This document shows positions 1,164 through 48,697 of a DNA stretch of 64,000 bases, one piece after another. Made by a program: the position numbers and the translations under genes. This DNA comes from Gloeobacterales cyanobacterium (GTDB taxonomy: Bacteria > Cyanobacteriota > Cyanobacteriia > Gloeobacterales > PMM-0068): positions 11,110-75,109 of the forward strand of contig JBBRSB010000005.1 in the NCBI GenBank assembly GCA_038245785.1, written 5' to 3'. Below the pieces are notes generated by a model. It was not told the origin of the DNA. It searched no databases and saw only the letters and a list, made by a program, of their open reading frames with translations. Every line of letters begins with the position of its first letter. Position 1 is the stretch's first letter.

Positions 1164-1655
1164 TCAATCTACGCCCAATAATCTACGCCAGCCAGAACGA
1201 TTAGCATTGGTCGGGACCATTGGCCTAGAGGATTCCTGCTCTTTGCGCAAAGATTCCAGCTGCTCTTTGGAGGCCAGAGAGGACATTTCACGACGAAGCT
1301 CATGAAGAACAGGCCGCATGTGCTCTACAACCCGTGCTGCAACTTTCTCAATCAATTGCTCATCCCATTCAGGCTCATGGGTCCGAACGATACGGTTACT
1401 TTCATCTAAAAATCGTTCTAGCTCTTCCTGAGCGATTAACGTAGGGCTATTGGGTGGATCGTCTTCATGGCGTGCGATGGTGGCCAGCCGACCATCAGCA
1501 ATCCAACGGCGAATAGTACGGACACTGCGGCCCGTTAAGGCTGAAACTTCTACGAGCGTCAATTCTGGTTTCACGACGTCCCCCTTATCCCTATCACTAA
1601 AAGTCACTAAAAAATCTCGCTTGGATTCCACGTCAGTATGACGCGGCACTGACAA
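1164..1655 (-). CDS. helix-turn-helix DNA-binding protein (excisionase/MerR-like HTH)
   Basis: LTLVEVSALTGRSVRTIRRWIADGRL is a typical HTH_17/excisionase-type motif. The C-terminal half looks coiled-coil-like. Confidence 0.55.
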   Translation of the reverse strand: MSVPRHTDVESKRDFLVTFSDRDKGDVVKPELTLVEVSALTGRSVRTIRRWIADGRLATIARHEDDPPNSPTLIAQEELERFLDESNRIVRTHEPEWDEQLIEKVAARVVEHMRPVLHELRREMSSLASKEQLESLRKEQESSRPMVPTNANRSGWRRLLGVD

Positions 1656-1982: not shown

Positions 1983-4900
1983 ATGGCGATTAAGGCAACG
2001 AGTGGCAGCAATGTAGCCCGCCCCCGCAGATTCAACACGGTAATGGTAGAAACCATTGATGGAGCCTGTACCGAGGATCGGTATTTTAGCTCTGGTGAGT
2101 TGGAGTCCATGAAGGGCTACTTCAACGAAGCCCAAAAGCGGCTTGCAGTCTCACAAATTATCATTAGCAATGCGGAATCCATCGTCTCTAGAGCGGCCAC
2201 CCGGATTTTCCAGGGAGGCTCTCCCATGGCCTACGCTCCCCAGCAGATGCAGCGCTCCAAAGAAACCGTGGGTATTGGTGGACGCAAGCGGAATGAAGCG
2301 CCTGAAGGTACTACTGGATTTGGAGATGAGGTGGTTATTGAGGACCGGGGCGGCTTCCTGGAACGACTCAAATCCCTCTTTGCCAGCAGTGGGGAAACGA
2401 TCACAGCGTCTAACTTCCAACCGATCAAGATCGCTCTGTATGGTGCAGAGCGGATGCAAAAATCTCTGAGAGATTTGGATTGGTTTCTACGCTATGTGAA
2501 CTATGCTCTGTTGGCTGGTGATTTAAATATCCTGGAACTCAACTGCATTGGCTTGCGGGAGATTTTAGAGAGAGCTTGTTCGATAGATGCCACGATTGTT
2601 GCGATTCAGGAGATGCGTCGGGCTTCATTGGGCTATTTGAAGACCCAAGACGATAAGACCTTAGTTGGCAGTTATTTCGATGTCATTGTTCGTTGTTTAG
2701 AAGCAGATAAGTCAGACAGCCCCGGCGATATTATTCGTCCGTCTACAACGGACCGTCCTGGTCTGCAATTGCCTTACATCTACGGGCTCGCTGGTCAGGC
2801 CAAGCGCAAGTTCCGGATTGATAGCACTACTACTGGTGAGCAGAAAGAGATTGCAATCAAAGCAGCCTATCGCCAAGTTTTTGAACGAGATATCAGAGCA
2901 CACTATGGCCAATCCGTTTCCGTCCCGGAATCCAAAGTCAAGAATGGTGAATTCTCAGTACGGGAATTTATCCGGAACTTGGGCAAATCAGAACTTTACC
3001 GCAAGCAGTTCTTTGAGCCTTTTATTGACTCTCGGGCGTTAGAACTAGCCTTTAAGCATTTCTTAGGACGCGCACCTGAATCCCGTGCGGAAGTTCAAAA
3101 TTACTTCTCGATCGTGGCTTCGGGCGGCCTATATGCTTTGGTCGATGCCCTAATCGATTCCGATGAGTACCAGCGCGTATTTGGCGAAGATATGGTTCCC
3201 TACATTCGCGATTTGGGGCAGGAAGCGCAACCCTCCTGGAACTGGGGTGCTGCCTACAACCTCTACAACTACGCTGCACCGCGCCGTAAAGTCCCTGAAT
3301 TTATTACGCTGTTTGCGGACTACACCAACAATTTGCCTAACCAGCATCCCTATGGCGCAGGTAATGACCCCTTAGAAATTCAATTTGGGGCTATTTTCAA
3401 CAAAGAGAATAAGAACTTAAATAGCCGTCCTGCCTTGATTGGAAAAGATGTTCAGCGCATCTTGATCCGTACGGGTATTCCTTTTGAGAACGAACGAGGG
3501 ACGAAAGACTTTACACCGGCGAAGGAATCTACCCTCGGACCCAAGATTTTCAAACTCACTCAAAATGTCAGTCAGCGTTCCGGCACTATTGTTCGCAATG
3601 CGGGCATCGTCAACGTTGAAGGCAGTACTAAAGCTGTGATCCGGGCTGCTTATCTCCAAGTGTTTGGACGGGCAATTTACTCTGGACAAGAGCAAAGCGT
3701 CGCCGAAATCAAGCTGGAAAACGGTGAAATTTCTGTACGAGAATTTGTGCGCCGTATAGCGAAGTCAGATGTTTTCCGCAACCTCTATTGGACTCCGCTT
3801 TATGTCTGTAAGTCCATTGAGTATATCCACAAGCATTTGCTAGGCCGTCTCACCTATGGACGTCAGGAAACGAACAAATACTACGATATTGCCTTCAAGA
3901 AGGGCTTTTATGGGGTGGTGGATGCGATTATTGACTCGCCTGAATACGACGAGGTATACGGCGAAGATACAGTCCCCTATGAACGCTACGTCAGCCCGCG
4001 CGGTCTAGCGCTGCGTACTCTCCGGGGTGGCTCCATGCAGCAACCGATGGAGGCAAAAGCCAATCCGATGATGGATATGGTTATGGCTCGCGGAGTTGCG
4101 CCGTCACGCTCTCTCCCGTCCATTCAGGCCAGTATTAACCAAGGGGTTTCTCGCAAGCGCGACCAAACTAAGGTCTTCAAGTACACCAGTAATCTCACCC
4201 GGCCTGAGTTTGAGCAGTTGTTGCGTGCGGTCTACCGCCAAGTATTCGAACGGGATATGGACGGCTACCGCGTAAGCGCGAGCTTCAGTGAGCCTGAGTC
4301 TAAGCTTCGTAATGGTGAGATTTCGGTACGGGAGTTTGTCCGTCGTGTGGGTAGCTCGGAGCTATACCGCAAGCAATTCTTTGACCGCTATCCAAACACT
4401 CAAGTCACGGAAATAGGCTTGAAGCACTTCCTCGGTAGAGCAACCAAGGACCAGTTGGAGTTGGCTCGTCTCGGTAACATATTGGCTAAAGAAGGGTTCA
4501 AAGCCTTTGTCAGTGCGATTATTGATTCTCCTGAGTATGATGCTACCTTCGGTGAGGATGTAGTTCCTTATCGTCGCTTCCCAACCCTACCTGCGGCGAA
4601 CTTCCCGAACACAGAGACCTTATACGAACGTCAGACCTTCCAGACCAAGGCACTAGTCGTACCGAGCTTTACTACCTTGAAAGCACGTAGGGGCATGTCC
4701 ATGGATAAGATGCCGATGACGGAAAGTGCTTTGGCTGATCTTCAGAAGCATAAAACTCTGATTGACCCGACCAAGCCGCGCTATCTGGAATTGGGTAAAT
4801 CTCTCAGAGAAGGGGGAGATGATTACACCGTTGGAGCTCGTCGCAATCCTCTGCCTATCTACAGGCTCACGGACAACAGTGGCTATACCGATAAAGAGAT

Positions 4901-5369
4901 AGCGATTCGAGCGGCCTATCGTCAGGTCTTCGAGCGAGATCTTCCTGAAGGTCTACGCCTATCAAAACCAGAATCTCGTCTCAAGAATGGTGAAATTAAC
5001 GTTCGGGAATTTATCCGTGCTTTGGGTAAATCCGATACCTACCGCAAGCAATTCTTTGATCCTTATCCCAACACGAAGGTGACGGAGTTCAACTTCAAAC
5101 ACTTCTTGGGACGTGCACCTGCGACACAGGAAGAAATCCAACTCTATAACCGGATTTTTGCAACCCAGGGATTGGCTGCTGCTGTAGACGCCATGCTCGA
5201 CAGTGAGGAATATTTCGCAATCTTTGGCGAAAACGTTGTTCCGTACCGTCGTTATCCAACGCTGCCGATTGGGACCTACACAGGCTCGGTGGCGACCAAC
5301 GATGAGCTTATCCAGCAGTCTTGGTCTTCTCTGTCGCCTTCGTACCTCGGTTTTAGCTTTTCTCGTTAG
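1983..5369 (+). CDS. apcE: phycobilisome core-membrane linker ApcE (LCM) with four REP linker domains
   Basis: N-terminus MAIKATSGSNVARPR...SRAATRIFQGGSPMAY is phycobiliprotein-like and carries an inserted loop. LRDLDWFLRYVNYALLAGD and ERACS (chromophore Cys region) follow. Four linker repeats are each marked by AAYRQVFERD / NGEISVREF / KHFLGR / GEDxVPY. Confidence 0.95.
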   Translation: MAIKATSGSNVARPRRFNTVMVETIDGACTEDRYFSSGELESMKGYFNEAQKRLAVSQIIISNAESIVSRAATRIFQGGSPMAYAPQQMQRSKETVGIGGRKRNEAPEGTTGFGDEVVIEDRGGFLERLKSLFASSGETITASNFQPIKIALYGAERMQKSLRDLDWFLRYVNYALLAGDLNILELNCIGLREILERACSIDATIVAIQEMRRASLGYLKTQDDKTLVGSYFDVIVRCLEADKSDSPGDIIRPSTTDRPGLQLPYIYGLAGQAKRKFRIDSTTTGEQKEIAIKAAYRQVFERDIRAHYGQSVSVPESKVKNGEFSVREFIRNLGKSELYRKQFFEPFIDSRALELAFKHFLGRAPESRAEVQNYFSIVASGGLYALVDALIDSDEYQRVFGEDMVPYIRDLGQEAQPSWNWGAAYNLYNYAAPRRKVPEFITLFADYTNNLPNQHPYGAGNDPLEIQFGAIFNKENKNLNSRPALIGKDVQRILIRTGIPFENERGTKDFTPAKESTLGPKIFKLTQNVSQRSGTIVRNAGIVNVEGSTKAVIRAAYLQVFGRAIYSGQEQSVAEIKLENGEISVREFVRRIAKSDVFRNLYWTPLYVCKSIEYIHKHLLGRLTYGRQETNKYYDIAFKKGFYGVVDAIIDSPEYDEVYGEDTVPYERYVSPRGLALRTLRGGSMQQPMEAKANPMMDMVMARGVAPSRSLPSIQASINQGVSRKRDQTKVFKYTSNLTRPEFEQLLRAVYRQVFERDMDGYRVSASFSEPESKLRNGEISVREFVRRVGSSELYRKQFFDRYPNTQVTEIGLKHFLGRATKDQLELARLGNILAKEGFKAFVSAIIDSPEYDATFGEDVVPYRRFPTLPAANFPNTETLYERQTFQTKALVVPSFTTLKARRGMSMDKMPMTESALADLQKHKTLIDPTKPRYLELGKSLREGGDDYTVGARRNPLPIYRLTDNSGYTDKEIAIRAAYRQVFERDLPEGLRLSKPESRLKNGEINVREFIRALGKSDTYRKQFFDPYPNTKVTEFNFKHFLGRAPATQEEIQLYNRIFATQGLAAAVDAMLDSEEYFAIFGENVVPYRRYPTLPIGTYTGSVATNDELIQQSWSSLSPSYLGFSFSR

Positions 5370-5377
5370 GGGTTCTT

Positions 5378-6712
5378 ATGCAGCCTATTGTTCTACGTAA
5401 ACTAACTCCCCGCCGCCCACTGGAAAGCCGTCCTCCCTTGAACAGCTACAATCAGGGCGTGGCGGTCTGGAAGGCCCTCGCGGGTACTCAATATGCCATT
5501 GAGAAAGCCCAGGACATGTCTAAACCGGCTCTGCGGTCTAATAACATAGGGGCCGTACCTGGAGGCCTTCAGGGTAAGCGGGCAGGAGGTAAATCTCAGC
5601 CAGGGAAAGTTTATCGCTTGAGTCCACAGCAGCCCAAAGCTGAGAAAGAAGCTGTCATCAAAGCGGTTTATCGTCAAGTGTTAGAAAGACCCTTGTTCGA
5701 TGGATTCCGCCTGAATGAACCAGAGTCTCGAGTAACCAATGGGGATATAACCGTCCGTGAGTTTGTCCGGGCTGTAGCGACTTCTGATGTCTATATCCGT
5801 CAGTTTTTTACCCGCTTCCCCAACACAAAAGTGGTTGAATATCTATTCAGACATCTCTTAGGGCGTGTGCCTCAAGACCAAGTTGAGCTGATTGCCTACC
5901 ATGATCTGCTGGCTAGAAAAGGTCTAAAAGCTGCTGTAGAGGCGATGATAAGCTCTACAGAGTACACGCAGGTATTTGGGGATGATACGGTCCCCTATCC
6001 TCGCTATACCTCTGATCCTAAGAATGGGTATACGGCTGGTGCTTATGCCGGAAGTATCCGGGTATTTAGCCAGCAGACCTTCCAAAATTCCACCGTCAAT
6101 TTTCCTAGTTTTGAGAATCCCCTTTTAGGCCTAGCACGCTATCAGGGACTTGATACGACTGGGAACCGGGTGCAACCTGCTCGCCCTCAACTAGATGCTC
6201 CTAGAATTTATTCCTTGGGTGACAACACAAAGGTTGAACTCATTTTGCGGGCTGCTTATAAACAGGTCTGGGAGAAGGATTTAGGTGAAGCTCCTCGACT
6301 AAATGAACCCGAATCTCGCCTCCGCAATGGGGATATTACTGTCAAGGAATTTATTCGGGCCTTAGGACATTCCGATTTTTATCTTCGAACCTATCTCGGT
6401 AAGTGGGATAATTCCAAGCTGGCGGAATTTAACTTTAAGCACTTCCTAGGCCGTCGTCCCGCTTCTACCCAGGAGCTTGCACAACATACCCAAACCTTGG
6501 GTCAGCGCGGTCTGAAAGCTGCTATCGATGAACTGTTGAATAGTGCTGAATACCGGAAAAACTTTGGAGACAACACTGTGCCCTATAGTACGCTGCGGTC
6601 TGAGCGCTATGTCGGCACTGTGGACCAACCGTCTCGCGCCTATGCCGGGACCTTCTCACAGGTACGTGAGCAGTACCACAAGAACACTACCCCTGCCTAT
6701 GAAAACCTATGA
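5378..6712 (+). CDS. free phycobilisome linker with two REP (PF00427-type) domains, ApcE REP3-REP4-like
   Basis: Two copies of the linker signature are present. The first is VYRQVLERP..NGDITVREFVRA..FRHLLGR..GDDTVPY and the second is AYKQVWEKD..NGDITVKEFIRA..FKHFLGR..GDNTVPY. They are preceded by a basic arm-like N-terminus. The start lies 8 nt after the apcE stop. Confidence 0.85.
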   Translation: MQPIVLRKLTPRRPLESRPPLNSYNQGVAVWKALAGTQYAIEKAQDMSKPALRSNNIGAVPGGLQGKRAGGKSQPGKVYRLSPQQPKAEKEAVIKAVYRQVLERPLFDGFRLNEPESRVTNGDITVREFVRAVATSDVYIRQFFTRFPNTKVVEYLFRHLLGRVPQDQVELIAYHDLLARKGLKAAVEAMISSTEYTQVFGDDTVPYPRYTSDPKNGYTAGAYAGSIRVFSQQTFQNSTVNFPSFENPLLGLARYQGLDTTGNRVQPARPQLDAPRIYSLGDNTKVELILRAAYKQVWEKDLGEAPRLNEPESRLRNGDITVKEFIRALGHSDFYLRTYLGKWDNSKLAEFNFKHFLGRRPASTQELAQHTQTLGQRGLKAAIDELLNSAEYRKNFGDNTVPYSTLRSERYVGTVDQPSRAYAGTFSQVREQYHKNTTPAYENL

Positions 6713-6878: not shown

Positions 6879-7364
6879 ATGAGCGTCGTTACTAAAGCGA
6901 TCGTCAATGCTGATGCCGAAGCCCGCTACCTGAGCCCCGGCGAACTAGATCGGATCCGCTCTTTCACCTCTAGTGGTGAGCGCCGTCTTCGCATTGCACA
7001 GACCCTGACCGAAGCCCGTGAGCGTATCGTCAAGCAAGGTGGAGACCAACTCTTCCAGAAGCGCCCTGATGTCGTTTCCCCCGGTGGTAACGCTTATGGT
7101 TCTGAGAAGACCGCTACCTGCCTACGTGACATGGACTACTATCTCCGTCTAATCACCTTCGGAATTGCTGCTGGTGACGTAACTCCCATTGAAGAAATCG
7201 GAGTTATCGGAGCTAAGGAAATGTATCGTTCCTTGGAAGTGCCTCTGCCTGGTATGGCTGAGTCTATCCGTGCCATGAAGCAAGTGGCTACCGGTCTTCT
7301 GTCCGGCGAAGATGCCACTGAAGCTGGCTACTACTTCGATTACCTGGCTGGTGCTTTAGGTTAA
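6879..7364 (+). CDS. apcA: allophycocyanin alpha subunit
   Basis: [26 protein letters not shown]...[32 protein letters not shown]; 161 aa; AGGAGG RBS upstream. Confidence 0.95.
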
Positions 7365-7414: not shown

Positions 7415-7903
7415 ATGCAAGATGCAGTAACTTCTGTAATCAATACCTATGATGTTCAGGGCAAGTACCTAGACACCAGCGCCATCGATAAGTTGAAGTC
7501 CTACTTCGCTACCGGTGAGCTGCGCGTTCGTGCTGCTGCTACCATCTCTGCCAACGCTTCTTCGATCATCAAAGAGTCTGTGGCTAAATTGTTCGGTGAG
7601 CAGCCTGACCTCGTCCGCCCCGGCGGAAATGCTTACACCACCCGTCGCTATGCTGCTTGCATCCGCGACCAAGACTACTTCCTACGCTATGCTACCTACG
7701 CTATGTTGGCTGGAGACCCCTCCATCCTTGATGAGCGTGTGCTGAATGGCCTTAAGGAAACCTACAACTCCTTAGGAGTGCCCATTGCTTCTTCTGTAAA
7801 GGGGATTCAATCGCTCAAAGAAGTAGTAGCTAGCTTGGTTGGTCCTGATGCCGGTAAAGAGATGGGAGTCTACTTCGACTATCTGTCCTCTGGGTTGGGC
7901 TAA
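7415..7903 (+). CDS. apcB: allophycocyanin beta subunit
   Basis: [20 protein letters not shown]...[56 protein letters not shown]; 161 aa. Confidence 0.95.
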
Positions 7904-8005: not shown

Positions 8006-8209
8006 ATGAGCCGCCAAGTGCGTATCACGGCCATCTTGCCTCGCCGTGCCCAGGGAGTGGATACGGGCCGTGAAATTCAAAACGTCTATTTCACAAAGAA
8101 AGTTAGCTACGACCAGTGGACTCCAGAGATGCTCCGCATTGGCCGCCAGGGCGGGCGAATCCTAAAAGTGGAAGTAATGGGCAGTGGAGACACAGCGCTC
8201 AATCTGTGA
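8006..8209 (+). CDS. divergent ApcC-like small core linker (CpcD-domain protein)
   Basis: MSRQVRITAILPRRAQGVDTGREIQNVYFTKKVSYDQWTPEMLRIGRQGGRILKVEV aligns by eye with the canonical ApcC pattern (REhQNxYFTK...GGKIxKVE). AGGAGA RBS. Confidence 0.8.
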   Translation: MSRQVRITAILPRRAQGVDTGREIQNVYFTKKVSYDQWTPEMLRIGRQGGRILKVEVMGSGDTALNL

Positions 8210-8288: not shown

Positions 8289-8498
8289 ATGAGTCGCTTA
8301 TTTAAACTAACTGCCTGTGTACCTTCTAAAGCAAGAGTCCGCACGGCACGTGAACTGCAAAATACCTATTTCACAAAATTAGTGGAATACGACCGCATGT
8401 ACCCAGAAATGCAGCGTATCTCTCGCCAGGGTGGAAAAATCATCAAGGTTGAGCTATATGCGGGCCGCCCTGGACAAAATGCAGGCGTTGTCGGCTAA
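8289..8498 (+). CDS. apcC: phycobilisome small core linker ApcC (LC7.8)
   Basis: MSRLFKLTACVPSKARVRTARELQNTYFTKLVEYDRMYPEMQRISRQGGKIIKVEL is canonical ApcC. Start moved from the track start (8268) to the ATG at 8289, which gives the usual N-terminus. Confidence 0.9.
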   Translation: MSRLFKLTACVPSKARVRTARELQNTYFTKLVEYDRMYPEMQRISRQGGKIIKVELYAGRPGQNAGVVG

Positions 8499-8510
8499 AA
8501 GTTGGATTTG

Positions 8511-8537
8511 AACCGGGCTTAGACCCGGTTTATTTAT
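8511..8537 (+). terminator. rho-independent terminator of the apc operon
   Basis: aaccggg-cttaga-cccggtt followed by tatttat, 13 nt after the apcC stop. Confidence 0.6.
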
Positions 8538-8582: not shown

Positions 8583-10505
8583 TCAACTAGAAAAATAGAG
8601 CTTCAGCACAGTTGGGTCCAAGCTGTGAACAACTTTGATCTCTGGCAAACTTTGGCTGAGCGTTTTGCCATAGCCTTTGCGGGTCATCCGTGGATCTAAG
8701 ATAGCAACCACACCCCGATCCTGACGAGAACGAATTAATCTACCAAAACCCTGTTTCAGCCGCAGGGATGCGTAGGGTAACGCGAGGGCTGTGAACCAAG
8801 CCCAGGTATCTCCACCCTGCTTGAGCTGTTCACAACGGGCATCATATACAGGGTCTCCGGGAGATTGAAACGGAATCCGGTCAATAATCACCAAGCTGAG
8901 CTGAGGGCCATCTACGGAAACCCCTTCCCAGAAACTATTGGTGGCAAAAAGGACAGGATTGGGAGTAGAGCGAAACCATTCCAAAAGTTGGCGCTTCGGC
9001 ATCTGTTTTTGATGGTGACTGGGCCAGAGAATTTTTTCGGACAACGCCTCATAGCACTGCAGCATGGCTCCCATGGAAGTAAATAAAACAAACGCCCGTC
9101 CTTGAGAAAGATTGACCAATTTCTCTACTTCTAAAGCGACCTGTTCATTAAAGGCTGGTTGATTGGGGTCTGGTAGATGACGAGGTAAATAGAGCAGAGC
9201 CTGTTCTTTAAAGTTAAAGGGACTGCTAAATTTGAGCTCTAGAGCCTTCTGCGGTTCCAGCCCTACTTGCACCCGGAAATAAGCAAAGGGGTCACTTCCT
9301 CCAGTTGTTAAAGTGGCAGAAGTCCAGACACTGGTCGGGCTGTCCTCTGAGAAAAACCAGCTTTGTAGTTGAGAAGCCAGGTCTAAGGGCGCACTCGAAA
9401 ATGCAGCTTTGGTTCCAGTCCGAGTAGATTCTGTTTGTTGCCAGCTTACCCACTGGGGAGAGGGATGCATCAGTAAGTGGAGATGCCCCAAATAGCCTGC
9501 CAGGATGTCTGACAATCGGTCTCTACGCATCAGAGAGACGGCACTTTCTAGATTCTTTTCCTCGTCTTTCTCCTTAAGGTTGAGGCTCAGGAGATTTTTC
9601 TGGAGGGCCGTAATTTTTTGGTGAAGATGCGCTAAGTCTAATTGGTCAGGGTCCAAGCTCCGGCTACTGGGATTTTCTAACACTCTCGCGAAGACTTGAT
9701 TCGCTATCTGCTCAACCGCTACTCTGGCAAGCTCTACTTGCGCAAACTGCTTACGAATCCGCTTCAACGTCCTTCTAAGACCAAAGTTGCTAAATTCCAG
9801 CGTAAGGGTTCGGGTCGCATACTCAGCAAACTGATGGGCTTCATCCACTACCAAAAAGTCATAGGGTGGCAGCAGTTGGCGGCTGGTGGCCCAATCCATA
9901 AGGAGCAGGGCATGGTTCGTCACGAGAATCTGTGTCTGGGCCAGATTGCGTCGTGACTGAAAGTAAAAACACTCGCTAAAGTGTGGGCAGCGTTCCCGCA
10001 GACAATCATCGCCATCGGAGCGCACTTCATCCCACAGTTCGGGAGAGGGTTGAACCTTGAGCTCAGACCAGTCTCCTTCTAGAGAAGTGTCTACCCAAGT
10101 TCTAAATTCTTCTGGCGTCGCTTGGGCCAGCAAATATTCATCCCAACGACGCTTAGAAAGATAGTGCCCTCGACCTTTAACTAATTGGGCCGTAAAAGGG
10201 ATGCCCAAGGCTTTTTGCAGGAGAGGAATATCTTTGTAGAGATACTGTTCCTGAAGTGCGATGGTCGCTGTAGAGATAACGACCCTCTTGCCCGTGAGGA
10301 CGGCAGGGACCAGAGCCGCAAAGCTTTTCCCTGTGCCCGTTCCTGCTTCTGCGACTACAGGCATTTTTTCGGCAAAGCCCCGGTGGATAGCCCGAGCCAT
10401 TTCCAATTGAGCGGCCCGCACTTCGTACCCAGACAGAGCCCCAGCTATTTTGGTAAAAGCTTGATCAAGGGAGAGGAGCGGCTGGGAATGTGCAGAAGAT
10501 GACAC
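8583..10505 (-). CDS. dinG: DinG/Rad3-family ATP-dependent DNA helicase
   Basis: Walker A AEAGTGTGKSFA, DEAH box VVDEAHQF, a Cys cluster DDCLRERCPHFSECFYF (FeS domain), and C-terminal helicase motifs FGRLIR. Confidence 0.85.
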   Translation of the reverse strand: MSSSAHSQPLLSLDQAFTKIAGALSGYEVRAAQLEMARAIHRGFAEKMPVVAEAGTGTGKSFAALVPAVLTGKRVVISTATIALQEQYLYKDIPLLQKALGIPFTAQLVKGRGHYLSKRRWDEYLLAQATPEEFRTWVDTSLEGDWSELKVQPSPELWDEVRSDGDDCLRERCPHFSECFYFQSRRNLAQTQILVTNHALLLMDWATSRQLLPPYDFLVVDEAHQFAEYATRTLTLEFSNFGLRRTLKRIRKQFAQVELARVAVEQIANQVFARVLENPSSRSLDPDQLDLAHLHQKITALQKNLLSLNLKEKDEEKNLESAVSLMRRDRLSDILAGYLGHLHLLMHPSPQWVSWQQTESTRTGTKAAFSSAPLDLASQLQSWFFSEDSPTSVWTSATLTTGGSDPFAYFRVQVGLEPQKALELKFSSPFNFKEQALLYLPRHLPDPNQPAFNEQVALEVEKLVNLSQGRAFVLFTSMGAMLQCYEALSEKILWPSHHQKQMPKRQLLEWFRSTPNPVLFATNSFWEGVSVDGPQLSLVIIDRIPFQSPGDPVYDARCEQLKQGGDTWAWFTALALPYASLRLKQGFGRLIRSRQDRGVVAILDPRMTRKGYGKTLSQSLPEIKVVHSLDPTVLKLYFSS

Positions 10506-10994: not shown

Positions 10995-11480
10995 ATGAGT
11001 GCTATCACCAAAGCTGTCCTGAACGCGGATGCTGAAGCCCGCTACTTGAGCCCTGGAGAATTGGATGTAATCCGTACCTATCTGCAATCTGGAGAGCGTC
11101 GTGTGCGCGTAGCCCGTGCACTGGCCGAGAATGCCCAAAAGATTGTCAGAGCAGCCGGAGATCAGCTATTCCAGAAGCGACCTGATATTGTTTCTCCCGG
11201 TGGCAATGCCTTCGGTGAAGTAAGAACTGCCAAGTGTCTACGTGATATGGATTATTTTCTTCGCATGATCGCCTATGGCGTTCTTGCTGGAGATACTGCT
11301 CCGATTGATGAAATTTGTTTGATTGGCATCAAGGAAACGTATCGTCTTCTAGAAGTCCCAGTCCCTCCTACGGTTGAAGGCATCAAGAACATGAAGGCCC
11401 AAGCCGTAAGCATGATGTCTGGAGACGATGCCGCAGAAGCTGGCTTCTACTTCGATTACGTCATTAGCGCAATGTCTTAA
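10995..11480 (+). CDS. second allophycocyanin alpha-type subunit (ApcA paralog)
   Basis: [26 protein letters not shown]...[35 protein letters not shown]; 161 aa. Start set at the ATG 12 nt after the CAGGAG RBS rather than the track TTG at 10962. Confidence 0.9.
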   Translation: MSAITKAVLNADAEARYLSPGELDVIRTYLQSGERRVRVARALAENAQKIVRAAGDQLFQKRPDIVSPGGNAFGEVRTAKCLRDMDYFLRMIAYGVLAGDTAPIDEICLIGIKETYRLLEVPVPPTVEGIKNMKAQAVSMMSGDDAAEAGFYFDYVISAMS

Positions 11481-11542
11481 TAACATGCCGTACATCCCTC
11501 GCGGAATGCGGTGCTAAAAAAACTACAAGGAGAACCTTCCAT

Positions 11543-12034
11543 ATGGCAATCGATGCAGTCACCCGGGTAATCAACCGAACTGATTCCCAGGGTAAATATG
11601 CTCTAGGTGCAGACCTAGATGAAATCGCAAATTTCTTTAGCGGCGGAGAAGCACGCTTAAGAGCTGCTTCTGCAATCAGTGCGAATGCTTCTGCCATTCT
11701 GCGCCAATCTGTTTCCCGCCTGTTTAGTGAGCAGCCTGACTTGCTCCGTCCAGGTGGATATAGCTATACTTCTCGTCGCTATGCCGCCTGTGTGCGTGAT
11801 ATGGAGTATTTCCTGCGCTACACTTCCTATGCTTTGGTGGCTGGTGACACTTCCATCCTTGATGAGCGCGTGCTAAATGGCTTGAAAGAAACCTATACTT
11901 CTTTGGGCGTTCCTATCGCGTCTACCGTATCTGGTATCGCTGCCATGAAGAGTGTAGTCGCTGAGATGGTTGGTGGAGATGCCGCACAGCAAACCAACCG
12001 TTACTTCGACCATTTGGCTCAGGGGCTGGGCTAA
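11543..12034 (+). CDS. second allophycocyanin beta-type subunit (ApcB paralog) with GGYSY instead of GGNAY
   Basis: MAIDAVTRVINRTDSQGKY...[58 protein letters not shown]; AAGGAGA RBS. Confidence 0.9.
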   Translation: MAIDAVTRVINRTDSQGKYALGADLDEIANFFSGGEARLRAASAISANASAILRQSVSRLFSEQPDLLRPGGYSYTSRRYAACVRDMEYFLRYTSYALVAGDTSILDERVLNGLKETYTSLGVPIASTVSGIAAMKSVVAEMVGGDAAQQTNRYFDHLAQGLG

Positions 12035-12051
12035 AACTTTCTTACCTCTTG

Positions 12052-12078
12052 GAGGGCCTTGTTAGGCCCTCTTTTTTG
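12052..12078 (+). terminator. rho-independent terminator after the second apcAB pair
   Basis: gagggcc-ttgtta-ggccctc followed by ttttttg. Confidence 0.8.
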
Positions 12079-13614: not shown

Positions 13615-14202
13615 CTATAGCTTACGAATCAATCCGGTCATCACACCGCACACTTCGAGACCACTGCGAGGATGAATCGGAGGATACTTTTCGTTAGCTG
13701 GATCGAGCCAAGTTTTGCCATTTCGGTTGCGCAAATACTTAAGGGTCATTTCTCCATCAATGCGCGCCACAATAATTTGTCCATCGCGGGCTTGACTGGT
13801 AGCAGCTACTACTACAATGTCTCCTTCGTAGATGCCTGCATTGACCATTGAATCGCCCTTCACTTTTAGTAAGAAGGTTTGATGGCGGTCCTGGATCAGG
13901 TAATCATCTAAAGACATGCGTTGGTCTAAGTAATCTTCTTCTACCCCTACGGGTTCTCCTGCGGGTATGCGGGTTTCTAGAAGGGGGACACCTAGCAGTT
14001 TGGGATGGATATAAAAGCGGGTACTTTCTGGGCGGTCTTTGGCCAAATAGCCCGTTTCTTCTAAAACTTGAATCCAGCGATAGACGGTAGTGCGATGTTG
14101 CCTAAGGTCATCCGCAAGCGTACGGATAGGAGGCAAAGGCCTATTTCCATAGGTGTCAATGAGTTGCTGTAAAAACTCTCTTTGGCGTCTGGTAATCGAC
14201 AT
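13615..14202 (-). CDS. lexA: LexA repressor (S24 peptidase)
   Basis: N-terminal winged HTH (TVYRWIQVLEETGYL), Ala-Gly site in RIPAGEPV, catalytic Ser in KGDSMVNAGI and Lys in MTLKYL. Confidence 0.9.
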   Translation of the reverse strand: MSITRRQREFLQQLIDTYGNRPLPPIRTLADDLRQHRTTVYRWIQVLEETGYLAKDRPESTRFYIHPKLLGVPLLETRIPAGEPVGVEEDYLDQRMSLDDYLIQDRHQTFLLKVKGDSMVNAGIYEGDIVVVAATSQARDGQIIVARIDGEMTLKYLRNRNGKTWLDPANEKYPPIHPRSGLEVCGVMTGLIRKL

Positions 14203-14374: not shown

Positions 14375-17300
14375 GTGCCCATGTCCTTCCGTCCGCTGAT
14401 TCGCCAAGTCCAGACTTTGCCCTTCATTCAGGAAGCGCTGGCCAAACTAACTCCCGGAGAAAATCTTCACCTGCAAGGGGCTAACCGCGTCGCCCGTGGA
14501 CTGGTGGCGACTGTTTTGGCTCAAACCCAGAAAAATAGCTTATGTATAGTTTGTGGAACGTTGGAAGAAGCCGCCCGTTGGAGTGCCCAATTGGAATTGA
14601 TGGGTTGGGGGGTGGTGCATTTCTATCCCACTTCTGAAGCCTCTCCCTATGAGCCTTTTGATCCAGAAGAAGAGACCACCTGGGGACAACTTCAGGTTTT
14701 GGCAGAATTAGTCCATACCTCTGCAACGCCAAACTTAGCGATTGTCACTACGGAACGGGCCTTACAGCCTCATCTCCCGCCTAAAGACCGATTTAGAGAA
14801 TATGTCCAACAGGTAAGAGCTGGAGAAACTCTGGCGCTGGAATCCTTTATTCAGACCCTGGTCCGTTTGGGCTATGAACGGGCGAACACGGTGGAAACGG
14901 AAGGCCAGTTTGCCCGTCGCGGCGATATTGTCGATGTCTTTCCAGTCTCGGCGGAAATGCCTTTGCGGGTGGAATGGTTTGGCGATGAAGTAGAACGCAT
15001 TCGTGAATTTGATCCGAATACCCAGCGTTCCTTGGACTTGGTACCCCAGCTGCGCCTCACGCCTACAAACTTTGGCAGCGTAGTCTTACCCTTGCTTCAA
15101 GACCGATTGACCGATGCTCAGGTCCAGAGCTTGCCTACTGCAATGCAGGAGGATTACCAAAATAAAATCCTGGAAGACCAAATGCCAGAGGGTGCCCGTC
15201 GCTGGCTCGGTTTTGCCTTTGACCAGGTGCATTCCCTCTTAGACTATTTGCCGGAAGATACCCTGGTCGTTTTGGATGAACCAGCGCTTTGCTATGGCCA
15301 TGCCCGACGTTGGTTAGAACATTCCCAAGAGCAGTTTATAGAGGTTTTTGGTCAAGAACCTGAGCATTACCAACGGCTGCATCGCGATTGTTTTAACCAA
15401 CAATCCTTAGACCTGTTGCCTGACCTTAGAAGAACGTTCTCTGTGTTGTCTTTGAGTGAAATTGCAGCAGATGCGCGTTCTTCTGGCAATTTAGCTGCCC
15501 GTCCCGTACCTTCGGTGCCCCACCAGTTTGGGTCTTTGGCTACTATGCTCAGAGACCTGCGGGACGAGGGGATGGCGGTTTGGCTCATTTCTTCCCAACC
15601 CTCCCGCACCGTCGCTCTTTTACAGGAACACGATTGCCCTGCTCAGTTTTTAACCAATCCAGAGGACTACCGAGCGGCAGAACGTCTACAGCGTGACCGT
15701 GTGGCCGTAGCCCTCAAGTCTTCGGGGCTAGCAGAACTGGAAGGATTCATTCTGCCTACGCTGCGGACGGTGGTCGTTACCGACCGTGAATTTTTTGGCC
15801 AACATCTGCTGACGACCCCCAGCTATGTCCGTAAACGCCGTCGCGCCCAATCTAAACAAATTGATTTGGACAAGTTGCAGCCAGGAGATTTTGTCGTTCA
15901 TCGCAGCCATGGCATTGGTCAATTTAAGAAGCTAGAGACAATGGCGCTCAACCGGACCAGCCGTGAATATTTGGTAATTGAATACGCCGATGGTCTTTTG
16001 CGGGTGGCCGTGGACCAGATGGGTACGCTGTCGCGTTATCGAACTTTGGGCGAGGGAAGACCAGCGCTCTCAAAAATGAGTGGTGCTACCTGGGAAAAAC
16101 AAAAGCAGAAGGTCAAAAAAGCCGTCCAGAAAATTGCCTTCGATTTACTCAAACTCTATGCCCAGAGGGCAGAACAGCGCGGGGTGGTCTTCCCGCCGGA
16201 TAGTCCCTGGCAAGAAGAATTGGAATCCTCTTTTCCCTATCAAGTCACGCCTGACCAGCTAAAAGCAATTCAAGCGGTCAAACAGGATATGGAGCTGGAA
16301 CGACCGATGGACCGCCTCGTCTGTGGAGATGTCGGTTTTGGCAAAACGGAAGTAGCGGTACGGGCTGCCTTTAAAGCGCTCATGGGTGGCAAGCAGTGTG
16401 CGGTCTTGGTGCCGACTACGGTCCTAGCCCAGCAGCACTACCATACGTTTAAGGAACGTTTTGCGCCCTATCCGATTCGGATTGGCCTGCTCAACCGTTT
16501 TCGTTCACCAGCGGAGCGGAAGGTACTCATGGCACAGATGCAGACCGGAGACCTGGATTTGGTGGTTGGAACCCATCAACTTTTGGGCAAGGAAGTCCAG
16601 TTTAAGGATTTGGGACTTTTGGTCATTGATGAAGAGCAGCGCTTTGGCGTAGCCCAAAAAGAGAAAATCAAGCTTTTTAAGACTAAAGTCGATGTTTTGA
16701 CGCTCAGCGCGACACCGATTCCACGCACCTTATATATGGCCCTCTCTGGGGTGCGAGAAATGAGTTTAATTACTACTCCTCCCCCTTCTCGCCGTCCGAT
16801 TAAAACCCATCTTTCGCCGATGGACCTAGAAATGGTGCGGACTGCGATTGCCCAAGAATTGGACCGGGGCGGGCAGATTTTCTATGTTTTTAACCGAGTG
16901 GAAGGCATTGAAGAGGTCGCCGCTAAACTGCGAGAGATGTCTCCTTCGGCCCGCATCGTGATTGCCCACGGTCAGATGGATGAAGGGCAGTTAGAAACTA
17001 CGATGTTGGCTTTTTCCCAAGGGGAAGCAGATATTCTCGTCTGCACTACGATTATTGAGTCGGGGCTGGATATTCCGAGGGTGAATACCATCATTGTTGA
17101 GAATGCCAATCAACTGGGCCTTTCTCAGCTCTATCAATTGAGAGGTCGAGTGGGTCGCTCTGGCATTCAAGCCCATGCCTGGCTTTTCTATAAACGCGAT
17201 GAAGCCCTCACCGATCTAGCCCGTAAACGGCTACGGGCCATCCAAGAATTCACGCAGTTAGGCTCTGGCTATCAGTTGGCGATGCGGGATATGGAAATTC

Positions 17301-17878
17301 GAGGTGTAGGAAACCTTTTGGGCTCCGAACAATCGGGTCAATTGAATACTGTGGGCTTTGACCTCTATATGGAACTGTTAGAAGAGGCTATTCAAGAGAT
17401 TCGAGGTCAGGAAATTCCAACGGTGGACGATACCCAGATTGACCTCAGCCTCACCGCCTTTATTCCCGCTGATTACATTCTGGATCTGGATCGTAAGTTG
17501 GCAGCTTATCGTCATCTCTCCAGTTGTACCAACCGGGCAGAACTTCGGGAAACTTTGGCAGACTGGACGGATAGTTTTGGCCCGGTCCCGCCTCCTGCCC
17601 AACAGTTGGTCCGGGTGATGGAGGTGAAACTGATGGCTAAAAACCTTGGCTTCTCGCGCATCAAACCAGAAGGAGCTTCAGTTGTTCTAGAGACGGCCAT
17701 GGAAGCTCCAGCCTGGGATAAACTGCAGACGAAACTGACGTCTTCTCAACGAGAAAAATGTATCTATGTGCCTGGACGGGTCGTGATCCGGGCTTTGAAT
17801 GCTGAGCCAGGAAGTCAGCAGTTAGCGTTCCTCTCAGATATTTTAGAGCGGTGTAGTGCAGAACTGGTTTCGGTATAG
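14375..17878 (+). CDS. mfd: transcription-repair coupling factor Mfd
   Basis: 1167 aa. Contains a UvrB-homology N-terminus, the CarD-like region [14 protein letters not shown], helicase motifs [11 protein letters not shown] / DEEQRFG, and the TRG region. The start may be GTG 14375 or ATG 14381. Confidence 0.95.
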
Positions 17879-19656: not shown

Positions 19657-22600
19657 TTAGACCATCGCCATCTGGCCACCTTTTAGCAACAGCTCAGCGC
19701 CTCTAAGTAAGTCTTCTTCCAAGTAGGGCTTGGTGAAGTAACCTTTGGCTCCTAGCTGATAGGCCGTTTGCCTATGTTTGTCTGCGCTACGAGAGGTGAG
19801 CATAGCAACGGGAAGATGTTTGAGACGGCTATCTTTTTGAACTTGGGAGAGGAACTCAAAGCCGTCCATTCGAGGCATTTCCACATCGCAGAATACCATA
19901 TCGCAGGCAAGACCAGCCTTGAGTTTTTCGGTGGCTTCTTGTCCATCTCTGGCCTGTTCTACGCGGTAGCCTGCCTTGATAAACGTCATCGATAACAGCT
20001 CACGCACCGTGATCGAATCATCCACAATCAGAACAGTAGGTTGGCTTTGCTTCTTGACTACTTTGGCCGGGCGGTATGGTTTCATCTCCTTGGCGGCAGG
20101 GAGTTGGCCTGTCACCATCCCAATCAATTCACCGACATCTGCAATCGACATCACCTGGCCATTGCCAAGAACCGTGACCCCAGCCAACCCCTGAGGTTTA
20201 TCTACAGGCCCTTTGAGTTGCTTGATAACAATTTCTTGCTCTTCGATAAAGGCATCCACCCCGACGGCGACGTAAGTCTCTCCGCTGCGGAGGATGACCG
20301 TAGCTACTTCTTTCTCCTTCATAAAGTCTGTGGAAGTACTGATACCAGGACGCTGATAAACCAGCAATTCAGAGAGAGGAACAAAAGGAATAAAGCGATC
20401 GCGCCAGAGAATGTAACGCCGTTTTCCTTCAGCCTTAATCCGGTCTGTCGGCAGTTCAACCATTTCATCAATACTGTCTAGCGGGAAAGCGATCATCGCT
20501 TGACCATTGCGACAGAGGATGGCCCGAGAAATACTCAAGGTTAAAGGAAGGCGGATGGTAAAGGTTGTTCCTTCCCCAGGAGTGGAATCAATCAGAACAT
20601 TCCCGCGCAAACGGTTCAGTCTATTCTGAACAACGTCCATACCGACGCCCCGTCCAGCAATCTCCGTCACCTGCTCCACGGTGCTGAAACCAGGTAGGAA
20701 GATCAGGGGGAAGACTTCGCCATCTGTCATCACCGCAGCCTGTTCAGGAGTGAGTAACCCCCGCTCTACCGCTTTGGCTCGGATCCGACGGGCGTCCAAT
20801 CCCCGGCCATCATCTTTGACGGAAATGATCGTTTGGTTGCCTTGATGAGAGGCCGAGACAGTAATTTTACCTTTCGCTTTTTTGTTCAATCTGCGCCGCT
20901 CCTCAATCGGCTCAATCCCATGCATCAGGGCATTGGTAGTGAGGTGGGTGAGCGGGTCATATAGCTCTTCTAAGATCGCCTTATCGAGTAAGGTTTCGCG
21001 TCCCAGCAGTTCTAGCTCAACTTCTTTACCCATGTTGATCGAGAGGTCGCGCACGGCGCGGGGTAGACGGTCTACCAGTTCGCTGAGCGGCAACATCCGG
21101 ATCTGGTTGAGTCCGTCCTGGAGTTGGGATGAGGTCTGCCGGAATTGACGGCTGGTTTCATCCGACTCATCCGTGACAAATTCAATATCGTCGGAAGCTT
21201 CTTTAATCCGTACGATCAGTTCCATAATCTCCTGAGAGAGGGTATGGAAGGCGGTGTAGCGGTCCATCTCTAGAGCATCAAAAGCTTCTTGGCCCCGATT
21301 GATATCGGCAATTGGGCTGGAAGTAGCTCCTGGAGCCTGAATGCCAAGTACAGATTTGTCGTAGTATTCCTCTAGCTCTCGGCTGACTCGGTCCATTTTG
21401 GTAACCCGCTGCTGGAGCATTTCCAAGGAAGCCCGGAGACGAGTCTGCTGATTCTCGAGGGTATTGCGGTTGATGACGAGTTCGCCTACCAAATTGCTCA
21501 AACCATCTAAGTGGCGCACTTCTACCCGCATGGTGCGACGGACCACAGGTCCGGTCAACGGAGCCCGTGACTCTGCGGATGCCGCCACCGCTGGTTGGGG
21601 AATTTCACGACCACCGCGCTCAGGCGGTGTTCCAGTACGGGTGGGACGACGGGCAGGACGTGCCGCAGGGGTCGCTTTGGGCGCAGGAGTCGCAGGAGTA
21701 ATAATAACAGGAGAAGGAAGAATATCTGTAGCTTGAGTCTGTTCCACAGCTTCTTTAGGAGCGTCAAACAAGGCTGCCAGATCCATCTCTTCATCAGAAT
21801 TGACGGTAGAAGCAAGTTCCTTCGAGGCAGGTGAGCTTTCCCGCTCCATCTCAGGCATGGAGGTAAACAAGTCGGCCAGAGAGTCTGCTGTTTCCGAGAC
21901 CGCAACTGGTTCCTGTAAGCGCAGCTCACGTGCCAAGTCGTATCCGGCAGCCGAAGGCGAGAAGGGGGGTTCGGCTTCGTCTTCGGGGAAAAGACTGGAG
22001 AGCGATGCTATCGTATCTTGCTCTTGGGCCTGTTCTTGCTTGACTAGCTGTTCGAGGACAGGAGCTGGAGCCACAATGAAGTTGTCTTTGGGCGGAGCAA
22101 ATAGTTGAGCGAGGATGTCGCCAAGGGATTCCTCTTCGGAAAGCTCCGCAACTGCAGCCATCGGCTCTACCGCTGGAGCTTCTAGAGAAACCAGAGGGAC
22201 CACAGCTTCGGCTACAGGAAGTTCTAACTCTTCTGATAGTAGAGACTCTAAAGCTGAAGCGGTCAGCCCCATACCAAGGGTGACTTCTAGGACTCCTGGG
22301 ATTTCCAAAACTGCTGTTTCTTCTGCCGCAGTTTCCACGACCTCTGGTGCGAACAGGTCGAACAGTTCTTCTGGCACAACCATGGGAATTTCAGGGAGCA
22401 CTTCTGGGGCCAGAACTTCCGCAAGGATTTCTTGCGTAAGCTGCTCTTCTGCAAGAACCTCTGACAGGATTTCCTGTGTGGGCCGCTCTTCTACTTCTTC
22501 AATCACCGGCACTGGGAACCCAGCACATTCCATGAGCCAAGGAGAAGGTTTTACCTGAGCGCCATCGCCCTGCAGAATCAGCGCTTTTGATTGCTGGAAT

Positions 22601-24279: not shown

Positions 24280-24298
24280 GGAAAAGCTCCTTTATCCG

Positions 24299-26392: not shown

Positions 26393-26454
26393 GGTCCTAC
26401 CTCTTTTGAAACTCGTCTTTGAAAACTCATCTTGCATGCGCTGGGTGAATGGTC

Positions 26455-27006
26455 TTAGGCTGCTGCCCATTGTTTGGCGGTGACGATGGAGCCAGGAGTA
26501 AGGAGGATCACAGGTTGGTCCTCAGTGTGGAACTTGCCCTGAATATGTTGGGCCAATCCTTCTTCTAAAGATTGATTCACCATCTCTTCAATCTGGTCTG
26601 CATTGATCCAGGCCATACCTTGGATAGCGTGCACGGCCAATCCCAAAACTCCTTCTCCCTCTTGCACAACAATCACGGAACAGGAACCGATAAATTCTGT
26701 ACTGGCCTGACCGTAGAGCTGGCGAAGGTCCAGAATCCAGATAATTTCTCCCCGTAAATTAAAGGTTCCCAAAAGGAGTGAAGAGATATTGGGCATAGGC
26801 GTAATTTGCTCTGGCAAAATCTCTACGACTTCGACAACGGTAGTAGCGGCGAAAGCAAATTGTTCTTCTCCAGACAGACCAAAGCGCAGGTAAAGGTCTC
26901 CTTGCGGTATGGGCATGCGGGGAGCGTCTTCTAAGGGAGTGAGGTCTATCCCTCGGAAAGCGGTGTTTACTGCGTTCGAGTCTCGTGCGTTCAAGTCTTG
27001 TGCCAT
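26455..27006 (-). CDS. pilI: CheW-like coupling protein (PilI/HmpC type)
   Basis: 183-aa CheW-fold pattern ([21 protein letters not shown]...[10 protein letters not shown]). It sits between the CheY-like and MCP genes. Confidence 0.75.
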
Positions 27007-27012
27007 GCAGCC

Positions 27013-27378: not shown

Positions 27379-27385
27379 GGCAATC

Positions 27386-39018: not shown

Positions 39019-39045
39019 CTGCATAAAACTTGTACTTTCCAGCGA

Positions 39046-46074: not shown

Positions 46075-46076
46075 TT

Positions 46077-46610: not shown

Positions 46611-46629
46611 AATTTTGCTCTAGTTTTAG

Positions 46630-47857: not shown

Positions 47858-48697
47858 TTGATGTGTAAAGTGCTCAATCTGTCCAGGAGTGGCTATTACG
47901 CCTGGTTCAAGTGCAAAGCATCCCCCAGAACTCAGGAGAATGAAATCTTGTCACAACAAATTCAACAGATTTACCAAGCAAGTCGTGAAACCTATGGCTC
48001 CCCCCGGATTCATGCATCGCTAGTGGACAAAGGCTTTCAGGTCGGTCGTCAACGGGTCGTGCGATTAATGGCAAAGCTCGGTATCTGCGTCCGCCCTAAG
48101 CGTAAATTCAAGGTCACGACCGATTCTGGACATGACTTACCGATTGCTGAGAATGTTCTGGATAGGGACTTTACAACGAGTGAACCTGACCGGTCTTGGG
48201 CAGCAGATTTGACGTATGTCTGGACCACTGAAGGATGGCTTTACTTGGCTGTCATTATCGACCTGTTCTCCCGACGGGTAGTGGGGTGGTCCATGGCTGA
48301 GCATATGCGTACAGAATTGGTTTTGACAGCTTTAGACGCAGCTTTGGGGCAGCGCATACCCTCACAAGCTGGGTTGGTCTTTCATTCTGAACGGGGCAGC
48401 CAATACGCCAGTGGAGACTACCAAGCTGCTCTCCAGAAGGCTGGCATAACCTGTAGTATGAGCCGTCGAGCCAATTGTTGGGATAACGCCGTGGCTGAAA
48501 GTTTTTTTGGTACCCTCAAAACCGAGTTGATCTATCCGAGGATTTTCTCCTCAAGAGCAATCGCCAGGACAACCATCGCGGAGTGGATCGAAGTGTTTTA
48601 CAATCGACAACGAATGCACTCGACGATTGGATATCTTTCCCCAGTTCAATTTGAAGAAAATTACTGGTGCACCCTAAATCACCCCATGGTAGCTTAA
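47858..48697 (+). CDS. IS3-family transposase OrfB (DDE/rve integrase core)
   Basis: WAADLTYVWT, FHSERGSQYAS and CWDNAVAESFFGTLKTE are DDE motifs of IS3 transposases. Confidence 0.9.
   Translation: MMCKVLNLSRSGYYAWFKCKASPRTQENEILSQQIQQIYQASRETYGSPRIHASLVDKGFQVGRQRVVRLMAKLGICVRPKRKFKVTTDSGHDLPIAENVLDRDFTTSEPDRSWAADLTYVWTTEGWLYLAVIIDLFSRRVVGWSMAEHMRTELVLTALDAALGQRIPSQAGLVFHSERGSQYASGDYQAALQKAGITCSMSRRANCWDNAVAESFFGTLKTELIYPRIFSSRAIARTTIAEWIEVFYNRQRMHSTIGYLSPVQFEENYWCTLNHPMVA

Follow-up and report, generated by a model that had tools for sequence, protein, structure and literature searches.

A probable ApcH core-core linker gene, accompanied by genes for the other top-cylinder components, in a deep-branching Gloeobacterales cyanobacterium

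The DNA analysed here, a window of 64,000 nucleotides from a Gloeobacterales cyanobacterium (GenBank assembly GCA_038245785.1, contig JBBRSB010000005.1, positions 11,110 to 75,109), contains the phycobilisome core-membrane linker gene apcE and, separated from its TAG stop codon by the eight nucleotides gggttctt, an open reading frame (ORF) for a basic protein of 444 residues (5378..6712, ~50.2 kDa, pI 9.7). We conclude, with a probability of roughly 0.85, that this ORF is the apcH gene of a Gloeobacterales cyanobacterium without thylakoids and that its product is the core-core linker (LCC), acting as its ortholog does in Anthocerotibacter panamensis. An original prediction, made from the sequence alone, had located the same ORF 8 nt past the apcE stop; its coordinates are correct, and the peptide strings it quoted all occur in translations of the window. 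Its suggestion that this was a previously undescribed free core linker with more than one REP (PF00427) domain is superseded, as ApcH was published in 2023 (PMC10696076). The ORF is a further member of that known family, not a new class of linker.

ApcH was described, named and solved by cryo-electron microscopy by Jiang et al. (2023, Nat Commun, PMC10696076), and its description as a core-core linker is repeated in a 2026 review (PMC13436157). According to the 2023 report, two copies of ApcH in the “paddle-shaped” phycobilisome of A. panamensis, a thylakoid-free cyanobacterium, link a bottom pentacylindrical core to two top cylinders; the protein is described as having REP domains as in ApcE, no PF00502 domain, and N-termini that attach to the C and C' cylinders (PMC10696076). 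The top cylinders are reported to consist mostly of the divergent allophycocyanin subunits ApcA1 and ApcB1 with the small linker ApcC1, and the bottom five of ApcA2 and ApcB2 with ApcC2 (PMC10696076, PMC13436157). Supplementary mass spectrometry in the same report lists 94% coverage of ApcH in purified A. panamensis phycobilisomes, including the N-terminal peptide MQPIILR (PMC10696076). The mass spectrometry and cryo-electron microscopy that had been proposed for the window protein have, in this way, already been carried out on its ortholog.

When the 444-residue protein was searched with phmmer against all chains in PDB, the top match was ApcH itself (8IMK chain 1, E 5.2e-154, 516 bits), found as a single alignment of query residues 1-442 to residues 1-429 of the 431-residue chain, with 56% identity by BLASTP. 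ApcE chains reached 416-475 bits, and did so only when the scores of four partial matches to their domains were added together. Glr1262 and Glr2806, multi-REP linkers of Gloeobacter, scored 271-275 bits, CpcN 323 bits and CpcJ 141 bits. A. panamensis ApcH (P0010) likewise falls within the set of homologs gathered for the window protein. As far as sequence can test them, the defining features of ApcH are all present: two REP domains within ~430-445 residues, no PF00502, full-length orthology, a family-specific N-terminal arm, a gene placed between apcE and apcA-apcB-apcC, and ApcA1, ApcB1 and ApcC1 encoded alongside.

The domain content agrees with this assignment. Pfam identifies two PF00427 stretches in the protein (E 4e-86) and detects neither PF01383 nor, at E <= 0.01, PF00502; the same search finds one PF00502 and four PF00427 stretches in the 1128-residue ApcE, the number of REP domains that had been predicted for it. 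A hidden Markov model (HMM) built from the window's own six REP domains placed the boundaries of the two in ApcH, here called REPa and REPb, and detected a REP domain in no ORF of the window other than ApcE and ApcH. The N-terminus, predicted to be basic, is strongly so, with 15 Lys and Arg against 4 Asp and Glu in residues 1-89 and a pI of ~10.5. Among nine family members, the mean identity to the window residue is 0.58-0.63 over this arm and 0.63 over the C-terminal tail; the arm, both REP domains and both tails are kept, and the least conserved segment is the inter-REP spacer (residues 247-285, 0.36), which in alignment with 8imk_1 is ~13 residues longer than in A. panamensis ApcH. A phmmer search with residues 1-89 against 1.84 billion representative proteins had as its sole true match an ApcH cluster representative. 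Three further matches were repeat proteins with no REP domain, and are not relatives; ApcH N-termini from the Gloeobacter side, described below, are too diverged to be recovered by this search. Comparison of the window gene with its counterparts in two Gloeobacterales metagenome-assembled genomes (MAGs; L001 and L002, 81-83% protein identity) gives a dN/dS of 0.09-0.10. Purifying selection acts on the gene, which is intact and conserved.

The original prediction regarded the ORF as a duplicate of the 3' half of apcE, REPa deriving from the third REP domain of ApcE (REP3) and REPb from the fourth (REP4), now expressed separately. The class to which it assigned the two domains holds up. In a neighbour-joining tree of 156 REP domains (121 columns, 200 bootstraps), the domains of ApcE and ApcH stand apart from those of rod linkers with 99% bootstrap support, as a phylogeny that it had called for was meant to decide, and REP1 and REP2 are well resolved. 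At class-diagnostic columns both REPa and REPb carry states of the REP3/REP4 type rather than the REP1/REP2 type, the respective counts for REPa being 10:2, 6:0, 11:0 and 8:2. Both ApcH domains belong, by sequence, to the REP3/REP4 class of ApcE. The motif PNTKV, which the original prediction had found lacking in REP1 and REP2, does not tell REP3 from REP4, as REP4 of ApcE also reads PYPNTKVTEF and REPb has just a degenerate KWDNSKLAEF.

Strict, collinear descent from the 3' half of apcE is a harder case to make, and we consider it unlikely, if the best surviving of the alternatives considered here. In its favor, apcH lies directly 3' of apcE, as a tandem duplication would leave it, and the best collinear profile-profile alignment pairs ApcH residues 37-442 with ApcE 693-1122, that is, with REP3, the fourth arm (Arm4) and REP4, at a score of 596 (492 for REP2-REP3 and 422 for REP1-REP2) and 39-40% identity (39% by BLASTP). 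The tail that follows REPa (QQTFQNSTVNFPSF) supplies the only REP3-specific signal, matching the post-REP3 tail profile best, at 6-16 bits, in eight of nine ApcH proteins, and the inter-REP segment aligns to ApcE 867-967 with an E-value of 9e-4; arm and tail comparisons are weak overall, with E-values from 0.02 to 9e-4. Against it, all nine ApcH proteins have a REPa core that fits the REP4 profile better than that of REP3, by 7-20 bits, and within the window the identity of this core is 55% with REP4 and 50% with REP3. The half comprising the arm and REPa, aligned by itself, fits Arm4-REP4 (378) better than the REP3 region (325). REPb shows no preference: together with the C-terminal tail it scores 285 and 279.5, the REP3 and REP4 profiles lie within ~6 bits of each other across the nine proteins, and its identities within the window are 51% to REP4 and 40% to REP3. 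The neighbour-joining tree recovers REPa as the sister of REP3 plus REP4 and puts REPb at the base, with low support throughout, and the pairings expected of a collinear duplicate, REPa with REP3 and REPb with REP4, occur in 0% of bootstraps. The signal is weak in either direction, as only four columns distinguish REP3 from REP4, too few to decide. The maximum-likelihood tree published with the structure places ApcH outside the ApcE clade (PMC10696076).

REPa and REPb each cluster with their own counterparts from three deep lineages, and the gene is not a recent duplicate. Any duplication that took place would, judging from this grouping, predate the split of the ApcH-carrying Gloeobacterales lineages. 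ApcH plausibly arose by an old tandem duplication of sequence from the 3' part of apcE; a mapping of its REP domains onto those of ApcE, domain by domain, is not recoverable from these data. What stands of the duplication proposal, then, is the domain class and the best collinear register, and what falls is the one-to-one correspondence.

Besides ApcH itself, the window encodes the other parts that are specific to the top cylinders of A. panamensis. The window ApcA1 scores 272.7 bits against 8imk_A, with the next PDB match at 235.9; ApcB1 scores 243.4 bits against 8imk_G and 209.2 against ApcB2; and ApcC1 scores 72.4 bits against 8imk_M and 53.2 against ApcC2. The divergence of the two subunits also shows in their failure to reach family cut-offs that their canonical paralogs in the window pass: ApcA1 falls below that of the NCBIfam ApcA model (232.7 < 270), which ApcA2 passes, and ApcB1 below that of TIGR01337 (205.5 < 228), which ApcB2 passes. 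With A. panamensis ApcA1 the window ApcA1 shares 77% identity, compared with 61-65% for canonical ApcA. ApcH, ApcA1, ApcB1 and ApcC1 together make up the full top-cylinder set, and the window represents a third deep Gloeobacterales lineage in which it is found. The pair apcA1-apcB1 (10995-12034) lies 2.5 kb downstream of the cluster apcE-apcH-apcA2-apcB2-apcC1-apcC2, with a DinG-like helicase gene (8583..10505) on the opposite strand between them. Within 8 kb downstream of apcH, no second apcAB pair is found in A. panamensis.

It is chiefly because all four parts occur together that we infer an extended core in this organism. Under the mechanism we propose, ApcH would be made as a basic 50-kDa protein in its own right, with translation starting at its own ATG, and two copies would dock through their basic N-terminal arms on the lateral C and C' half-cylinders of the pentacylindrical core organised by ApcE. 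The REP domains, if they work as those of ApcE do, would lie within the allophycocyanin discs of one additional top cylinder (D/D') made mostly of ApcA1 and ApcB1 with the small core linker ApcC1. The outcome would be a core of seven cylinders that offers a larger absorption cross-section for a given area of membrane. The position of the protein, and hence a heptacylindrical core in this organism, is predicted by homology with A. panamensis.

Several points weigh against so full a reading. Identity to the solved ApcH is just 56%. The longer, poorly conserved inter-REP spacer could alter the geometry. CpcN and CpcJ, the Anthocerotibacter-type linkers, are not in the 64-kb window. The operon structure, discussed below, is deduced from gene spacing, and a scan for promoters and terminators gave no more matches than chance.

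The longer spacer, together with a different linker set elsewhere in the genome, might cause the ApcH ortholog to connect the parts of the core in a geometry other than that of A. panamensis, for example with a different number of extra cylinders. The window ApcE, moreover, is almost as far from Anthocerotibacter (62-65% identity) as from Gloeobacter (~59%), and Aurora, a relative of A. panamensis, is reported to have a different set of linkers and may build a different phycobilisome (PMC10696076). Against such a departure stand the presence of all four top-cylinder-specific parts, each most similar to its A. panamensis counterpart, and the conservation in ApcH of the N-terminal arm, both REP domains and both tails. 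We regard a different geometry as improbable, with the arrangement seen in A. panamensis much the better expectation.

Database annotation would lead elsewhere. NCBIfam has no ApcH model, and its matches to the window ORF are exclusively to the CpcG1-4 models; ApcH orthologs carry the label “rod-core linker polypeptide” at NCBI and “phycobilisome core-membrane linker protein” at JGI. One might therefore take the ORF for a linker that binds phycocyanin in rods, at the rod-core junction or in chains (types CpcG, CpcJ, CpcN or Glr1262/Glr2806) and lies beside apcE by chance, but we find this very improbable. The CpcG matches, at 158-177 bits, are far below the cut-offs of 420-440, and the presence of two REP domains also sets the protein apart from CpcG and CpcL, which have a single one. 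CpcC and CpeC are distinguished by a C-terminal PF01383 domain, not found in the ORF, and by rod-type REP domains, from which REPa and REPb are separated at the 99% bootstrap level given above. CpcN, CpcJ, Glr1262 and Glr2806, at 141-323 bits, are well short of the 516 bits obtained for ApcH. The JGI label is a misnomer because the ORF lacks PF00502: the core-membrane linker ApcE (LCM) begins with a PF00502 domain that bears the bilin site, ahead of two to four REP domains. Both public labels are misleading for ApcH, and correct annotation is the main value of the present analysis.

That ApcH is a separate polypeptide, as originally predicted, is borne out by the junction with apcE. In six loci, those of the window and five other genomes, 8, 9 or 16 nt separate a TAG or TAA stop from a start that reads ATG CAG CC.... 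Because the spacers differ in length, the frame relation between apcE and apcH varies from locus to locus, and a conserved read-through fusion is therefore excluded; within the window, apcH is read in another frame than apcE. A contig from the assembly of run SRR19962014 encodes ApcE and ApcH identical to those of the window, and the same two proteins are also present in NCBI on a 161-kb contig. The idea that the TAG at 5367 arose from a mistake in sequencing or assembly, or is subject to read-through, so that the true product would be a six-REP ApcE, has as its sole support the shortness of the 8-nt spacer, and we reject it as having next to no probability given the change of frame, the junction kept in six loci from different assemblies with different spacers, the SRR19962014 contig, and an ortholog that is a separate chain by cryo-electron microscopy with its N-terminal peptide observed by mass spectrometry.

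The gene order apcE, apcH, apcA, apcB, apcC was seen at nine further loci besides that of the window. With a helix-turn-helix (HTH) gene upstream on the opposite strand, it is shared by the window, A. panamensis (L006), Ca. Cyanaurora vandensis (L007) and the two Gloeobacterales MAGs mentioned above. The synteny that had been suggested as a check thus recurs in related genomes. The window's closest genomic relatives are MAGs labelled Gloeobacterales, and its ApcE is 62-65% identical to those of Anthocerotibacter and Cyanaurora, ~59% to Gloeobacter-side sequences and 54-56% to those of crown cyanobacteria; because of these identities and nearest relatives, the window represents a separate deep branch of Gloeobacterales. 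The lineage is common in JGI metagenomes.

The order apcE-apcH-apcA-apcB-apcC is found also in three contigs from the Gloeobacter side, GCA_031399965.1 (L004), SRR22405868 (L011) and JGI 3300036045 (L012), each of which has a two-REP gene for 431 residues directly 3' of apcE. The N-terminal motif of these proteins, MQQPVILR...RP, is as in other ApcH; they are 39-44% identical to other ApcH and 68-79% identical among themselves. The ApcE encoded beside the L004 copy (P0129) matches that of G. violaceus at 2101 bits and that of A. panamensis at 1392, and L011 also has a gene for an ApcC1-like protein of 59 residues (11188-11367). A MAG of Aphanocapsa lilacina has the same upstream genes (YbeY, DAGK, NdhS, EbsA) and has apcA directly after apcE, with no apcH between them (L009, 9468-9680). 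A search with ApcA1 returned a clear ApcA1 group (77-98% identity) followed by canonical ApcA at 61-65%, with no recognisable ApcA1 from the Gloeobacter side among the matches.

The 2023 report gives ApcH as absent from G. violaceus, with no homologs above 50% identity beyond Aurora, and leaves it possible either that the core-core linkage was lost elsewhere or that it was acquired late (PMC10696076). Our search, confined to one literature library, found no report of the distribution described here. Its apparent presence there, recognised from these sequences, contradicts the published restriction to the Anthocerotibacter/Aurora lineage. Distances for ApcH and ApcE are congruent between lineages, which makes vertical descent with subsequent loss the simpler explanation, and an ancestral origin followed by loss is favored because apcH is found at this position in all three deep lineages, those of the window, of Anthocerotibacter and Cyanaurora, and of the Gloeobacter side. 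There is about an even chance that an ApcH-bridged extended core would be ancestral to Gloeobacterales, the pentacylindrical core of G. violaceus then being a secondary reduction. Whether the seven-cylinder core was ancestral and lost or was acquired late can be tested with existing MAGs and cultures, and bears, as a modest additional return from this work, on the evolution of antennae before thylakoids.

Features of the apc region are collected in Table 1. Gene spacing suggests that apcH is probably co-transcribed with apcE and apcA2-apcB2-apcC1-apcC2. Hairpins resembling terminators follow apcC2 (8509..8532) and apcB1 (12051..12072), in a scan whose total number of matches, for promoters and terminators alike, was not above chance over the window. 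The divergent HTH_17 gene upstream of apcE is found in the window, A. panamensis and Ca. Cyanaurora vandensis, and not in the Gloeobacter-side loci; it may act as a lineage-specific regulator of the apc operon. Scans of the 64-kb window for Rfam families and tRNA genes found nothing.

Table 1. Coordinates of apcH, its parts and neighboring antenna genes; positions are those of the window, except in the last row, where they refer to the contigs named
Feature	Position	Strand	Remarks
HTH_17/MerR-like DNA-binding protein	1164..1655	-	Pfam PF12728; divergent upstream neighbor of apcE
apcE, core-membrane linker	1983..5369	+	PF00502 and four REPs, aa 288-410, 549-669, 743-866, 971-1091; 63-65% identity to ApcE of A. 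panamensis and Cyanaurora
apcE TAG (5367..5369) and 8-nt spacer	5367..5377	+	precedes apcH ATG
apcH, core-core linker (LCC) ortholog	5378..6712	+	full-length match to PDB 8imk_1; two PF00427, no PF00502
apcH N-terminal basic arm, aa 1-89	5378..5644	+	MQPIVLRKLTPRRP...; predicted anchor to C/C' half-cylinders
apcH REPa, aa 90-210	5645..6007	+	Pfam and REP HMM; ApcE-type
apcH post-REPa tail (aa 211-246, conserved) and inter-REP spacer (aa 247-285, variable)	6008..6232	+	
apcH REPb, aa 286-406	6233..6595	+	Pfam and REP HMM
apcH C-terminal tail (aa 407-444) and stop codon	6596..6712	+	aligns with 8imk_1 C-terminus
apcA2-type canonical allophycocyanin alpha	6879..7364	+	best PDB match 8imi_A ApcA2, 302.6 bits
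apcB2-type canonical allophycocyanin beta	7415..7903	+	best PDB match 8imi_H ApcB2, 294.2 bits
apcC1-type small core linker	8006..8209	+	best PDB match 8imk_M ApcC1; PF01383
apcC2-type canonical ApcC core linker	8289..8498	+	canonical ApcC matches 92-96 bits, ApcC1 54
apcA1-type divergent allophycocyanin alpha (top-cylinder isoform)	10995..11480	+	best PDB match 8imk_A ApcA1
apcB1-type divergent allophycocyanin beta (top-cylinder isoform)	11543..12034	+	best PDB match 8imk_G ApcB1
Gloeobacter-side ApcH-like genes	L004 10001-11296; L011 8624-9919; L012 6661-7956		431 aa, two REPs

Several features elsewhere in the window were recorded in passing. A gene for a LexA-like S24 peptidase/HTH protein (13615..14202, minus strand) adjoins mfd, for the transcription-repair coupling factor (14375..17878, plus strand); together with the gene for the DinG-like helicase, they intersperse DNA-repair functions among the antenna genes. 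A signalling cluster resembling those for chemotaxis or phototaxis (19657-28567, minus strand) encodes a 1540-residue Hpt-CheA-CheW-receiver hybrid kinase, a methyl-accepting chemotaxis protein with TPR repeats, CheW, and a response regulator of the PatA type (DUF4388-receiver). The stretch 38000-50700, with a GC content of 0.41-0.46 (against ~0.49), contains genes for Uma2 endonuclease-like and FRG-domain proteins and for a transposase of the IS3 type (47858..48697), along with several ORFs that Pfam does not match, and is probably a mobile or recently acquired island. A multicopper oxidase gene near that of an FTR1-family iron permease (55667-58808) resembles an iron-uptake module, and the cluster at 59019-63616 combines pilin-like N-terminal methylation motifs with large ORFs that have no Pfam match.

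Free linkers with several REP domains are known from other systems, and comparison with these sets ApcH apart. Crown cyanobacteria and metagenomes have free linkers with two PF00427 domains, with lengths of ~520-615 residues (for example P0063-P0086, at ~550-615); their sampled REP domains group with the rod-type outgroup, outside the ApcE/ApcH clade, and they have no ApcH arm. Some of them, such as P0065 and P0074, combine two REP domains with a CpcD domain (PF01383), which the window ApcH lacks. The relatives of the window are Gloeobacterales MAGs, in keeping with the original expectation that free multi-REP linkers belong to Gloeobacter-like systems, but the crown examples go against the exclusive form of that expectation, and such linkers are not confined to Gloeobacteria. 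Glr1262, Glr2806/CpcJ and CpcN are likewise free polypeptides of thylakoid-free cyanobacteria, with two to five PF00427 domains; these are reported to tether hexamers of phycocyanin or phycoerythrin rather than cylinders of allophycocyanin (PMC10696076), and against the window protein they score 141-323 bits, as opposed to 516 for ApcH.

The C-terminal half of ApcE is closer, with REP domains of the same class, 39-40% collinear identity and a similar tail after REP3 as after REPa. Both proteins would organise allophycocyanin cylinders, the window ApcH by homology. ApcH, in contrast to ApcE, has no phycobiliprotein-like domain, and so no bilin site, no role as terminal emitter and no membrane contact; its inter-REP arm has ~75 residues where that of ApcE has ~105, its N-terminal arm matches ApcH only, and there is no clean REP-to-REP correspondence between the two.

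A. panamensis provides the closest counterpart, although it represents a deep lineage of Gloeobacterales other than that of the window, with an ApcE 63% identical. Its ApcH has 431 residues against 444, a difference due mostly to the longer inter-REP spacer of the window protein, and its apcA1-apcB1 pair does not lie within 8 kb of apcH, whereas that of the window is 2.5 kb downstream of the apc cluster. In both organisms, ApcH begins with the motif MQPI(I/V)LR...RRP...RP and has two PF00427 domains and no PF00502, the gene follows apcE and precedes apcA-apcB-apcC1-apcC2, and ApcA1, ApcB1 and ApcC1 are encoded in the same genome.

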